The notes under the pieces are model-generated. The model searched no databases. It saw only the letters and a program-made list of their open reading frames with translations, and had not been told where the DNA came from. Source: Candidatus Poribacteria bacterium (GTDB taxonomy: Bacteria > Poribacteria > WGA-4E > PCPOR2b). Taken from it: a DNA stretch of 64,000 bases. The stretch lies in NCBI GenBank assembly GCA_965208325.1, contig OZ242326.1, positions 1,984,001-2,048,000 on the forward strand, written 5' to 3'. Both the position numbers and the translations under genes were made by a program. This document shows positions 48,066 through 52,354 of the stretch, piece by piece (positions within the stretch are counted from its first letter, which is position 1; each line of letters starts with the position of its first letter).

Positions 48066-49922
48066 TTCGGTTAAAGACACCGAGTTTTCAAATGAGGGTC
48101 GCGATTCGGAGATCGCTCTTGCGGCGCGCGGGTGGAATTGGAAGGATGGAAGATTGGATGGGATTCCGATTTTAGATGATGGGTTCGTATTGTTTAAAAA
48201 TTGGGTTAGGTTCAGCTCGGGATTAGGGACGGTGTTCGTAATTGGCAATCAATTCGGATGGGAGAGGTTTTAAAAGCGTTGGGTTTCGCTACAACCATCG
48301 GATTTTGTACACGGATAGATTGACGGGAGCGGTTGGTTTTACTGGGCGATTATTGGATGAACCCGCTCTACCCAACCTACAAAAACTTGTCCACAAACTA
48401 AGATTAGAAGAAACCGAGTTTTGAAGAAAAAACTCGGTTTCAAATAAAGTCCGCAATTTGGAGATCGCTCTTGCGGTGCGCGGGTGGAATTGGAAGGATG
48501 GAAGATTGGATGGGATTCCGATTTTAGAGGATGGGTTCGTATTGTTTAAAAATTGGGTTAGGTTCAGCGCGGGATTAGGGACGGTGTTCGTAATTGGCAA
48601 TCAATTCGGATGGGAGAGGTTTTAAAAGCGTTGGGTTTCGCTACAACCATCGGATTTTGTACACGGATAGATTGACGGGAGCGGTTGGTTTTACTGGGCG
48701 ATTATTGGATGAACCCGCTCTACCCAACCTACAAAAACTTGTCCACAAACTAAGATTAGAAGAAACCGAGTTTTGAAGAAAAAAACTCGGTTTAAAATAA
48801 ACGCCGCGATTCGGAGATCGCTCCTGCGGTGCGCGGGTGGAATCGGAAGGATGGAAGGTTGGAAGGGATTCCGATTTTCGAGGATGGGTTCGTATTGTTT
48901 AAAAATTGGGTTAGGTTCAGCGCGGGATTAGGGACGGTGTTCGTGATTGGCAATCAATTCGGATGGGAGAGGTTTTAAAAGCGTTGGGTTTCGCTACAAC
49001 CATCGGAATTTGTACACGGATAGATTGACGGGAGCGGTTGGTTTTACTGGGCGATTATTGGATGAACCCGCTCTACCCAACCTACAAAAACTTGTCCACA
49101 AACTAAGATTAGGAGAAACCGAGTTTTGAAGAAAAAACTCGGTTTCAAATAATAGCCGCGATTCGGAGATCGCTCTTGCGGTGCGCGGGTGGAATTGGAA
49201 GGATGGAAGATTGGAAGGGATTCCGATTTTCGATGACGGGTTCGTATTGTTTAAAAATTGGGTTAGGTTCAGCTCGGGATTAGGAACGGTGTTCGTGATT
49301 GGCAATCAATTCGGATGGGAGAGGTTTTAAAAGCGTTGGGTTTCGCTACAACCATCGAATCTTGTACACGGATAGATTGACGGGAGCGGTTGGTTTTAAT
49401 GGGCGATTATTGGATGAACCCGCTCTACCCAACCTACAAGAGCTTGTCCACGAACTAAGATTAGGAGAAACCGAGTTTTGAAGAAAAAACTCGGTTTCAA
49501 ATAAAGTCCGCAATTTGGAGATTGCTCCTGCGGTGCGCGGGTGGAATTGGAAGGATGGAAGAAAGGGAGCGCATGAACATTCGGTGTTGAAGGGTAGGTG
49601 GATTGCGTAAGTCTTACGCTTTAATGGCCAAGCATGATTGTTTAAAAATTGGGTTAGGTTCAGCTTGGGATTAGGGACGGTGTTCGTGATTCGCAATCAA
49701 TTCGGATGGGAGAGGTTTTAAAAGCGTTGGGTTTCGCTTCAACCATCGGCATTTGTACACGGATAGATTGACGGGAGCGGTTGGTTTTACTGGGCGATTA
49801 TTGGATGAACCCGCTCTACCCAACCTACAAAAACTTGTCCACAAACTAAGATTAGGAGAAACCGAGTTTTGAAGAAATAGTATCAAATGACCTGATGATA
49901 GTTGGAATGCGCGTGGTTACTG

Positions 49923-50068
49923 ACTTCGAGCCATCATCAAATGAGCGAGTTATGTTGGCTTAATTAGCTTATCCGTCAAGAAATTCATTTGGTTTGGCTA
50001 GAAGCGTGACAAAGTATACCAAAATGGCTATGGCGTGCCAAGCCGATGCCAAAGAAAGAGACGTTGTT
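49923..50068. ncRNA. Candidate structured non-coding RNA (two stem-loops with large internal loops)
   Basis: By-eye pairing 49923-49945 with 49984-50005 plus apical GGCT/AGCT; weaker second domain at 50008-50068; no expression evidence. Confidence 0.35.
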
Positions 50069-50101
50069 TTCCCATGTCTAAGCAATAATAGGCGTATGCT
50101 G

Positions 50102-50995
50102 TCATTGCAAGTCTCCTGTAGGTTTGGAACTGGACGGCACGGTGTTATCTTTGCCGTCTTCCAAGTTTGCGTTGATGTCATTCAGCGAATGTTGAGGAAT
50201 TAGGTCGAGATATTGAGAGATGACGCGCTTGGAAAGTTTGGTAATCTGAGAGATTTTGTCAATGTCATCGGTAGCGGTGCGAACAATCTTAACGGACTCA
50301 TAATCATGGATGTATCGGTCAACAGCTTCTTTGGAGTGCTTGGTTTTGGCAGCAATGGTCGGAGTCAGGTGCCCTTGTAGATAAAGGGTAATAATCTCCT
50401 TCTTGTGTGTAATTGCCGCCGATAAATCGTGAATGTTGCCGCGAGTGGGCAAGATTTTTCCACTGGTGCTTTGCCACTCGTTGACATACTCACTCACTAC
50501 TGGGTCGCGGACGTTGAGCAACACAGCCAGGTCTAGTTGAGTCAACAATGCCCCTTGGTCATAGGCTTGATAACACCATCGCACCAATCGATGAATTCTG
50601 AGTTCACGAGAGCTGAAGCCGCTGTAATAGTGTTCAATGTCCTCGGGGGCCACAAAGCTTAAAACCACAGGCTTCATGCGGGTTTTAACGATTGACTTGG
50701 CTCTCTGTGGATATTCGTCAATCGGCACAGCCATCCAAACCAGTTGACCATAGCTAAGCATTCGTTCATCAGGAAGTTGTTCTCCAGCGGCGAGTTTATC
50801 AAGTGGCAAGCGAATCAGGAAATAGTCTTCAATAGTTTTGACGATGTCATCGACAATGGCTTTGGCAGTCACTTCGCCTTTGTCATACCCATAGGAATTG
50901 ATAAAGCGATGAATCAGCAACTGCCGCAACGATTTATCATTGATACGTCTGATTTTCTTCTCGTTGATTTCGGTTCGAGTCAATGATTTACTCAT
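50102..50995 (-). CDS. DUF1670-like multi-HTH protein B
   Basis: QAYDQGALLTQLDLAVLL, PTRGNIHD, THK, TKHSKEAVDRY; ATGA overlap with the upstream gene. Confidence 0.85.
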   Translation of the reverse strand: MSKSLTRTEINEKKIRRINDKSLRQLLIHRFINSYGYDKGEVTAKAIVDDIVKTIEDYFLIRLPLDKLAAGEQLPDERMLSYGQLVWMAVPIDEYPQRAKSIVKTRMKPVVLSFVAPEDIEHYYSGFSSRELRIHRLVRWCYQAYDQGALLTQLDLAVLLNVRDPVVSEYVNEWQSTSGKILPTRGNIHDLSAAITHKKEIITLYLQGHLTPTIAAKTKHSKEAVDRYIHDYESVKIVRTATDDIDKISQITKLSKRVISQYLDLIPQHSLNDINANLEDGKDNTVPSSSKPTGDLQ

Positions 50996-51792
50996 GAGTT
51001 TTCCCCCTTTTTTTCATCAACGGGTTCAGGATGAAGTAAAGTCGTCATTCGCTCTGTATGTTCGTATTTATCATACAGGGAGAGATACTCACGAATCAAT
51101 CGGTCAGAGAGATGGGTGATGAGCCGTATCTGTTCCTTTGGAAAGTCTTGATGATGGAGGGTTGCTACCTGAGTGAAATTACGCAAGTATCTCAACACGG
51201 CGCGTTCGGTGTGGTTCGTCTTTCGCTCAATGTCGGTGAATTGATAGCCTTTAAAGTACAGTTCTAGGATTTGGGTTTTATGAGAGATGCCGGGGCCCAT
51301 GTCGTGTTTGGCGCCGCGAGTCATTACAAAAAACCCTTGCTGTTTCAACTGTCGAATGTCTCGTTTGACGGTCGCCGGGCTGGTGGTTAATAGCACCGCT
51401 AAATCTTCATAGCTGAGCAAAGCGTCTTGGTCATAGGCTTGTTTGGTTAACCGTAAGATTCGATGTCGTCTGAGTCCTGCAAGTCCATAGTTGGCTAACA
51501 CCTCAAGATCGGTGTGCACATCATTGAGGGTGAGTTGGCAGGAGACCTTTTTGGCTAAGGCAATGTGTTTACCTGCGGGTTCGTCGGCGGCTACGGCTTC
51601 ATAGCAGATTTGGCCTGATGTGAGTTTAATATCGGCGTGTTGGGCAAAGTAGGAAGAAATCTGATTATAGTAGGCTTCGGCAAGGATAGGCATCAGATTG
51701 AAGTCTGACGCAATCTTCTGAATAATTGCCGCTCTCGCCGTCTTTGATTCCAGACGATTGATACCGTAGTTTGAATGACTTTGTGGTTTCAT
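50992..51792 (-). CDS. DUF1670-like multi-HTH protein A
   Basis: QAYDQDALLSYEDLAVLL, TRGAKHDMGPGISHK, TNHTERAVLRY; GGAGG RBS before ATG at 51792. Confidence 0.85.
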   Translation of the reverse strand: MKPQSHSNYGINRLESKTARAAIIQKIASDFNLMPILAEAYYNQISSYFAQHADIKLTSGQICYEAVAADEPAGKHIALAKKVSCQLTLNDVHTDLEVLANYGLAGLRRHRILRLTKQAYDQDALLSYEDLAVLLTTSPATVKRDIRQLKQQGFFVMTRGAKHDMGPGISHKTQILELYFKGYQFTDIERKTNHTERAVLRYLRNFTQVATLHHQDFPKEQIRLITHLSDRLIREYLSLYDKYEHTERMTTLLHPEPVDEKKGENS

Positions 51793-52354
51793 AATGACCT
51801 CCATGGATTCATGGTAATTGATGGAAATAACATCTGTTATCAGTTTAACTCATGGGGTCATTTGATACAAACTATAAAAAACTCGGTTTCAAATAAAAGT
51901 CGCGATTCGGAGATCGCTCTTGCGGTGCGCGGGTGGAATTGGAAGGATGGAAGATTGGAAGGGATTCCGATTTTCGATGACGGGTTCGTATTGTTTAAAA
52001 ATTGGGTTAGGTTCAGCTTGGGATTAGGGACGGTGTTCGTGATTCGCAATCAATTCGGATGGGAGAGGTTTTAAAAGCGTTGGGTTTCGCTCCATTCATC
52101 GGATCTTGTACGCGGTTAGGTTGACGGGGAATTTGGTTTTCATGGACGGTTTTTGGATGTATCCGCTCTACCCAACCTACAGGAGTTGTGTTTAAGAAAC
52201 CGAGTTTGCAAGAAAAAAACTCGGTTTCAATTAACATTTTGCTCGGCTTCAGAGTTTCGGCAGGTGCAGTTGGGAGACTAAACCTACCGCAGTGCAAATA
52301 AATTACGAGCTTTGCAATGATTTGGCGGAAGTCCTTGTTCGGAAGGAACTATTC

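Follow-up and report, generated by a model that had tools for sequence, protein, structure and literature searches.

A putative DUF1670-encoding insertion sequence of Candidatus Poribacteria with asymmetric junctions and no target duplication

Elements of the IS200/IS605 and IS91 groups integrate beside a short specific sequence without duplicating the target, those of the IS110/IS1111 group likewise duplicate no target bases, and integrative elements residing in tRNA genes carry a copy of the 3′ end of the target gene. IS110/IS1111 insertion is described in two reports (PMC11187229, PMC12288879) as site-specific and directed to repetitive extragenic palindromic (REP) sequences, with sub-terminal inverted repeats in the IS1111 group. 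Here we analyse a 2001-bp element that carries two genes for DUF1670 (PF07900) proteins and lies in a 64,000-nt stretch of a Candidatus Poribacteria genome (GenBank assembly GCA_965208325.1, contig OZ242326.1, positions 1,984,001 to 2,048,000 of the forward strand), hereafter referred to as the window. Candidatus Poribacteria are sponge symbionts; the genome in question (4.7 Mb, one contig) contains four copies of the element, 100% identical over the 2025-nt query. In the following, a slash in a sequence marks a junction.

The element reads AAATAG...CTAT on the forward strand and occupies positions 49875-51875 of the window. These bounds were set from 30 and then 90 distinct right junctions in relatives, from 34 paired copies (copies with both ends located), from orthologous empty sites that a sister genome offers for two own copies out of four, and from a site at the end of a gene with a type IX secretion system (T9SS)-type tail. 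The left junction is CCGAGTTTT GAAG AAA TA-GTATCAAATGACC (repeat at 49880-49892), and the right junction is GGTCATTTGATAC (51856-51868)-AAACTAT (51869-51875) AAAAAA CTCGG, in which ACTAT occupies 51871-51875; a first-pass annotation of the window had given this description, which the sequence bears out together with its coordinates. The parts of the element are the following.

49875..51875, - strand (both genes on -): whole element, whose + strand reads AAATAG...CAAACTAT; bounded by junctions in relatives, empty orthologues and the T9SS-tail gene site
49875..49879, + strand: left tip AAATA, invariant in 34/34 paired copies, the right flank being variable
49880..49892, + strand: left 13-bp inverted repeat GTATCAAATGACC, identical across lineages with a synonymous distance (dS) of ~1 in the coding regions
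49893..49939, + strand: imperfect hairpin just inside the left repeat, with 78% paired cells across 19 relatives against 27-62% in slid controls
49875..50101, - strand: 227-nt non-coding stretch that follows the second gene, with no Rfam match and a fold not above shuffles
51856..51868, + strand: right 13-bp inverted repeat GGTCATTTGATAC, the perfect partner of the left repeat
51869..51875, + strand: right tip AAACTAT, invariant in right ends retrieved by the repeat core alone and in 30/30 paired copies

The perfect inverted repeats are sub-terminal, lying 5 nt (left) and 7 nt (right) from the element ends, or 3 and 7 nt if AA is taken as a core. The terminal 18-20 nt of each end, tips included, are identical between lineages with dS of 0.23 to >1, and since they are unchanged over distances at which synonymous sites diverge, the tips are, on this comparison, functional parts of the element. 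Together with G49880 the left tip reads AAATAG, a mimic of the displaced target AARTAR that provides Lys and a stop codon at gene ends.

The assignment of bases at the junctions comes from the relatives. In 30 distinct insertions the left junction is always N/AAATAGTATCAAATGACC and the right junction always ...GATACAAACTAT/AAR, with AAA in 26 and AAG in four. When 176 Poribacteria genomes were searched for the right-end 20-mer with up to one mismatch, 77 of them contained it (up to 20 matches per genome), and the reversed-pattern control gave none. Among the 90 distinct right junctions, the first three bases of the flank are AAA in 51, AAG in 31, AAT in two, GAA in two, and AGG, AGT, ATA and CGG in one each; its first six bases are AAAAAA (21), AAGTAA (15), AAATAA, AAATAG and AAGTAG (12 each), AAGTGA (four), and others (14). 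In contrast to this variability, the left tip is AAATAG in all 34 paired copies. Because the left AAA is constant and the right triplet variable, the left AAA is assigned to the element and the right triplet to the target DNA.

All eight right triplets that are neither AAA nor AAG were inspected. Two belong to full-length copies, namely L234 (2011 bp; left ...ATTCTA/AAATAG, right CTAT/ATATAG) and L233 (2012 bp; right CTAT/AGTGAT). Two more belong to internally deleted copies with both ends present, L232 (1552 bp; right CTAT/AGGTAA) and L239 (1536 bp), whose altered tip CTAA reads CTAA/CGG, and the remaining four comprise one derivative of 445 bp, with GAA, and three fragments of the right end that measure 30 to ~370 nt.

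Orthologous empty sites agree with this assignment. A gene-end copy in genome G018 reads ...ATTTTG/AAATAG(element)CTAT/AAGTAAGAG, and the orthologous gene in genome G013 ends ...ATTTTG AAG TAG, with a single AAG. For copy B of the own genome, the sister genome G002 has the empty site GAAG/AAAACACTCGG, with six bases from GAAG to CTCGG as in the filled right flank; for copy D, G002 has a 7-A form that equals the two flanks joined exactly if the element is AAATAG...CTAT. Since the orthologous empty sites are the two flanks joined, and since the left triplet is constant and the right one variable, no target base is, as judged from these sites, gained or lost on insertion. Among the readings offered in the first-pass annotation, a 2-nt AA core with IS1111-like sub-terminal repeats comes nearest, as it accounts for the AAG cases and gives back the 6-A site, but the AT or AG found at the right of L234, L233 and L232 shows that a strict AA core is not needed and leaves at most one A shared.

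The first of two target classes is a palindrome, and the window copy splits one example of it within a tandem array, as listed below.

49858..49874, + strand: left half of the split palindrome, GAAACCGAGTTTTGAAG
51876..51890, + strand: right half of the split palindrome, AAAAAACTCGGTTTC, the two halves together reproducing the canonical 6-A empty site without change
48086..49562, no strand assigned: tandem array of 352-bp period, each unit with an empty palindrome; the interrupted unit comes next

Each of the four own copies interrupts an example of the palindrome AGAAACCGAGTTTT-GAAG-AAAAAACTCGGTTTC at one and the same point of the loop, and the flanks beyond the palindrome are unrelated; four identical copies at one palindrome position are far beyond chance. 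Three of the four read GAAG-AAA/TAG...CTAT/AAAAAA-CTCGG (the left slash being placed here after AAA), and the fourth has one extra A at the left. The palindrome is a dispersed REP-like repeat with 81 matches when the arms are allowed to be up to 40 nt apart, 50 of which, all empty, are the canonical 24-mer (37 and 13 by strand). A 7-A variant of the empty site occurs in the array at ~48766 of the window (genome 2032766), and the element itself splits one unit of the 352-bp array. The palindrome is often found within tandem arrays, with periods of ~160-490 bp and a strand bias, and the array listed above continues to ~52300. In relatives, the palindrome accounts for 15 of the first 30 insertions, all 15 sharing one loop position and one orientation.

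The second class consists of gene ends. Of the 15 non-palindrome insertions, 13 fall on the final codon of a gene that encodes a T9SS-type tail, and the left end always abuts the gene. The products of these genes end ...SGIYFYxL......ATRKMLILK followed by the stop codon; all five tails tested score 29.5-42.2 bits with the model of the T9SS type A sorting domain, TIGR04183 (cut-off, 23), which identifies the tail as that domain. At such a site the AAATAG of the element gives Lys and a stop codon, and the AAR-TAR of the gene itself comes to lie at the right junction; the left tip copies the displaced target, and therefore a gene ending in Lys-stop stays intact. In both classes the insertion point is immediately 5′ of an A, usually in AAR-TAR or in the A-run of the palindrome loop. 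The choice between the classes differs among genomes: G018 has 313 palindromes, yet all five element copies are at gene ends; G063 has 449 palindromes, which are used as targets; and G099 has none, the 18 right-end matches read (of 20) all being followed by a codon and a stop codon.

Partial and altered copies are found as well. Gene-less miniature derivatives with both ends, each at an AAR-TAR site, measure 69 bp (L184:1490-1569, genome G081), ~445 bp (L237:2116-2559, genome G099) and ~400 bp (L006), the last being a remnant at a T9SS-type gene end of the own genome (L006:1141-1540, which is C1:2139013-2139410). Solo left-end remnants occur in the own genome at C1:2325643, 2657334, 2718953 and 4459142, and are commoner than right-end remnants; they may persist by supplying the stop codon of the abutting gene. 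The 13-bp repeats bound only this element and its remnants in that genome. In genome G006, four copies carry an in-frame TGA in the second gene, and two longer copies are present (3137 bp, L058; 3999 bp, L033, with extra open reading frames inside). Locus L186 (genome G085) consists of a full-length copy followed by AAATAATTGACAAACTAT and then AAATAATTG..., and its right flank resembles what an older insertion at that site might have left behind, an 18-nt mini-remnant made up of the left and right tips.

The element carries two overlapping genes, both read from the reverse strand.

50992..51804, - strand: first gene, 270 aa as listed, DUF1670 paralogue B (Pfam PF07900, E = 7.6e-64; AlphaFold2 model with a predicted local distance difference test score, pLDDT, of 90.4)
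50102..50995, - strand: second gene, 297 aa, DUF1670 paralogue A (Pfam PF07900, E = 1.1e-59; AlphaFold2 pLDDT 72.4)

The start of the second gene overlaps the stop of the first by 4 nt (ATGA). The first gene probably starts at the ATG at 51792, four codons after the listed start, as suggested by a GGAGG preceding that ATG and by the length of its close homologues (266 aa). Both products match PF07900 over the full length, with 201.9 and 215.5 bits against a gathering score of 25, and are paralogues with 34% identity. The ratio of nonsynonymous to synonymous substitution between lineages with dS of 0.23 to >1 is 0.05-0.13 for the second gene and 0.05-0.12 for the first; both are under purifying selection. 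In Pfam, DUF1670 is a family with no assigned function. A search among 1.84 billion cluster representatives gave 1237 relatives at E <= 0.001, named at source as 'hypothetical', 'biotin operon repressor', 'DNA-binding NarL/FixJ family response regulator' or 'DUF1670 domain-containing protein'. The relatives include single chains with two or three DUF1670 modules, and these fused forms suggest that the separate paralogues act as a hetero-oligomer. Three-module chains are P0250, P0253, P0257 and P0260 (930-952 aa), and about 20 proteins of 500-570 aa have two modules.

The AlphaFold2 models consist of an N-terminal helical part with a β-hairpin, followed by a winged helix and two further helix-turn-helix (HTH) units. 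A Pfam scan of both proteins (E <= 0.01) found only DUF1670 and HTH families, and some DUF1670 proteins have weak matches to HTH_23, HTH_28 and HTH_29; NCBIfam, which names transposases in NCBI annotation, gave nothing above its cut-offs. Foldseek against the PDB gave nothing at E <= 0.001, a sequence profile search of the PDB only weak winged HTH (wHTH) matches (E >= 0.04), and the ESM Atlas no usable match for the N-terminal 105 residues. With VIA-align only wHTH/HTH regulators were retrieved, the best having Z = 6.7 (root-mean-square deviation, 2.8; 59 aligned residues) for B and Z = 6.5 (2.2; 57 aligned) for A. Altogether, neither Pfam and NCBIfam nor the fold search revealed a nuclease or recombinase domain. 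Among the residues common to both paralogues (B numbering), Arg163 and Tyr240 are invariant, and Asp99, Arg118, Asp134, Asp168, His175, Lys176, His198 and Tyr206 are shared. Most of them sit in HTH helices, where conserved residues usually contact DNA. Two catalytic candidates were discarded. Topoisomerase VI-A/Spo11 matches the winged helix weakly (Z = 5.1-6.3), on a par with dozens of ordinary regulators, which is not evidence, and the residues of a possible DDD triad, three conserved Asp with spacings of 35 and 34, are located in separate helical modules of the model.

In comparison with described systems, the element would work most like IS110/IS1111 elements (DEDD recombinase with a bridge/seek RNA; IS621, ISPpu9), with which it has in common site- and orientation-specific insertion, REP targets and a sizeable non-coding region, together with the sub-terminal inverted repeats of the IS1111 group. 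It is apparently not a member of that group, because neither a DEDD protein nor guide-like complementarity was found. There is no DEDD/Transposase_20 match (PF01548 and PF02371) in the DUF1670 proteins, and the flanks share with the two non-coding regions only 5-6-nt words, which 352-489 of 500 shuffles also reach in this crude comparison of exact words. Further differences from IS110/IS1111 are the use of two unlike targets by one element type and the lack of a detected circle in assemblies. As to a structured RNA, the fold of the left 249 nt is no better than shuffles (z = 0.33), the sole Rfam match of the non-coding region is a sub-threshold small nucleolar RNA, RNAalifold predicted no consensus pairs, and a promoter and terminator scan of the element gave nothing above shuffles. 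Like integrases of tRNA genes, the element replaces a displaced host gene end and leaves the gene intact, AAATAG here standing in for AAR-TAR; unlike in those systems, the shared segment is only ~6 nt, the targets are a class of paralogous gene ends and palindromes rather than one locus, and no tyrosine or serine integrase match was found. Serine recombinase elements of the IS607 type differ in that no PF00239 match was found here, and in that they have an identical 2-nt core at both junctions, whereas here the right flank has AG or AT in three copies with AA at the left.

Based on these observations, we consider it somewhat probable on balance that the element is an autonomous insertion sequence of an undescribed family, whose DUF1670 pair performs or recruits a conservative exchange of the site-specific type. 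The absence of duplication, the strict orientation, the unequal sub-terminal repeats and the target-copying left tip point to breakage and joining at fixed points 5 and 7 nt outside the repeats, without a staggered target cut. In the proposed mechanism, the two DUF1670 proteins, as their fused forms suggest, would act together, bind the inverted repeats and pair the ends; they would then carry out breakage and rejoining at N/AAATAG and CTAT/A, or recruit a host enzyme for it, with a conservative chemistry similar to site-specific recombination in place of staggered target cleavage and gap repair. The free form could be a double-stranded circle, a linear excised piece or a single strand. That the DUF1670 pair, with its HTH modules and small N-terminal domain, is itself a new class of DNA strand-transferase for seamless, oriented insertion at short A-rich sites is a more specific proposal, which we put forward tentatively, as less likely than not.

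Several observations weigh against the conservative exchange proposed above. Neither DUF1670 protein has a catalytic domain or fold by the searches described, the best Z scores of 6.7 and 6.5 being background and the N-terminal ~100 residues being barely covered. Identical or almost identical elements insert into two dissimilar classes of target, with a lineage-dependent preference for which no determinant is visible, the non-coding ends of the elements showing no difference that tracks the target class. Because the right flank starts with A in 87 of the 90 junctions, the boundary may move by one A, and the junctions may overlap by that one base. No circle or head-to-tail dimer was found in assembled contigs, a kind of data from which rare forms are dropped, and this negative result carries little weight; the circular intermediate implied by the AA-core and coupling-sequence readings of the first-pass annotation is thus hypothetical. 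The exact circle-junction pattern had no match in metagenome contigs, and a looser repeat-spacer-repeat scan of these contigs gave 85 matches, of which the 80 readable loci were unrelated palindromes, none with an AAACTAT/AAATA spacer. In the 176 Poribacteria genomes a right end is followed by AAATAGTA in four cases and no dimer occurs, the four being two full-length copies beside left-end remnants (18 and 10 nt) and two short right-end fragments. The contigs of four public runs contain no 'goes back' joint among the rows listed, and empty-site and footprint-like joints were seen in them. The two full-length copies abut their left-end remnants without a gap, CTAT/AAATAGTATC..., an arrangement that fits the left tip being a target mimic.

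Sites resembling excision footprints are a further difficulty. At genome positions 1973080 and 1973531, 10.9 kb upstream of the window, two sites without the element read GAAG-A7-CCAT-A6-CTCGG; the first-pass statement that ACTAT is absent from empty sites thus stands for 79 of the 81 palindrome matches, these two being set against it. The form with CTAT, GAAG-A7-CTAT-A6-CTCGG, is present in contigs of public runs X1 and X3. The footprint form equals a copy at a 7-A site minus everything from TAG to GATAC, with both tips left, and the sites look like the result of imprecise excision, later copied with the tandem unit. They are rare: none was found in five other genomes, all 14 matches to AAACYAT-A6-CTCGG being genuine right ends. 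A footprint that retains the 7-nt right tip is not expected from a purely conservative recombinase.

An alternative that we regard as unlikely is that the element is a non-autonomous cassette, in which the DUF1670 proteins are regulators or target selectors and an unlinked enzyme (a Xer-type or other recombinase, or a nuclease) cuts and joins. It would account for the lack of a catalytic fold or domain in either protein, and the gene-less miniatures (69, ~445 and ~400 bp) show ends persisting without genes in cis; the 12 long DUF1670 forms scanned, none of which is fused to a catalytic Pfam domain, are neutral in this respect. However, no other gene type is bounded by the 13-bp repeats in the own genome, the ends accompany both genes in every case, strong purifying selection acts on these genes, and the spread of the family over 1237 representative clusters in many lineages would call for a universally available helper.

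Similarly improbable is a single-strand 'peel and paste' or rolling-circle route, like that of IS200/IS605 or IS91, with one strand, the coding-sense strand, cut 3′ of TAYTT (the complement of AARTA) at the target-side junction and at the distal end of the element, and then moving as single-stranded DNA. In gene orientation the upstream junction reads ...TAYTT/ATAG and the element end ...CTATTT/, so that the same short sequence precedes both cuts. The absence of duplication, the single orientation beside a short specific sequence and a similar sequence at the far end are features of these groups as well, and an imperfect hairpin lies just inside one end. On the other hand, no HUH (Y1 or Y2) domain was found with Pfam, the covariation of the hairpin (49893-49939) in the 19 relatives is not above shuffles, and true 13-bp inverted repeats 2 kb apart are present instead of one hairpin per end.

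Classical cut-and-paste with a short duplication, either of 3 bp (AAA) or of 2 bp (AA, like the TA of IS630/Tc1-mariner), is very unlikely. AAA stands on both sides in 51 of the 90 junctions and AA in 84, and the small element size, the dinucleotide-like fixed target and proteins with paired HTH modules recall IS630/Tc1-mariner, as do the weak matches to HTH_23, HTH_28 and HTH_29, families also found in transposases. Excision of Tc1/mariner elements leaves end nucleotides behind, and the footprint-like sites described above keep them too. The 3-bp version, which the first-pass annotation had listed, nevertheless fails on the right triplets, since the left AAA is present in 34/34 copies, 31 of the 90 right flanks have AAG and the orthologous empty site has a single AAG; the 2-bp version fails in the full-length L233 and L234 and in L232. 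Moreover, strict orientation at a non-palindromic target is unexpected for a symmetric, duplicating transposase, and no RNase H-like fold was found, Pfam giving no DDE match and the fold searches only wHTH/HTH, with the N-terminal third barely covered. The broader first-pass proposal, that asymmetric junctions point to a recombinase-like insertion instead of a classical DDE insertion with fixed target duplication, is supported, because there is no duplication, the orientation is strict, the sub-terminal repeats lie at unequal distances from the ends and no DDE domain was found. Classical cut-and-paste transposases are not known to insert in a single orientation and without duplicating target bases.

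Insertion of the Tn916 type, with variable coupling sequences from the previous site (the remaining first-pass reading, a foreign 7-bp spacer), can practically be dismissed, for although the target resembles a T-run, short spacer and A-run, alignment of the junctions of other copies, the check proposed in that annotation, found AAACTAT invariant in all paired copies across many targets and across genomes with saturated synonymous sites, and no tyrosine recombinase domain (PF00589) was found.

Judged by title and abstract, the literature retrieved held no relevant work on insertion sequences or transposases of Poribacteria, and none was found that names DUF1670 or PF07900; ISfinder was not compared. 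What is new here is the base-level evidence for zero duplication, the 5- and 7-nt offsets, the mimicry of the target by the left tip, the two target classes within Poribacteria and the footprint-like site. An ambiguous poly-A junction is thereby resolved into an anatomy with a testable cut site. Harm to the host is avoided in two ways: some insertions fall between genes, in the loops of REP-like hairpins, and others on the final codon of genes for secreted proteins, where the tip of the element restores Lys and the stop codon. If the proposed role is true, a widespread domain would gain a function, and thousands of 'hypothetical' gene pairs could be annotated as mobile elements; should the strand-transferase proposal hold, the bacterial and archaeal DUF1670 proteins (1237 representative clusters) would mark a large unrecognised family of insertion sequences. 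If the DUF1670 pair is the transposase, it would represent a new enzymatic way to move DNA, with the seamless, oriented insertion that is sought in recombinases for genome engineering.

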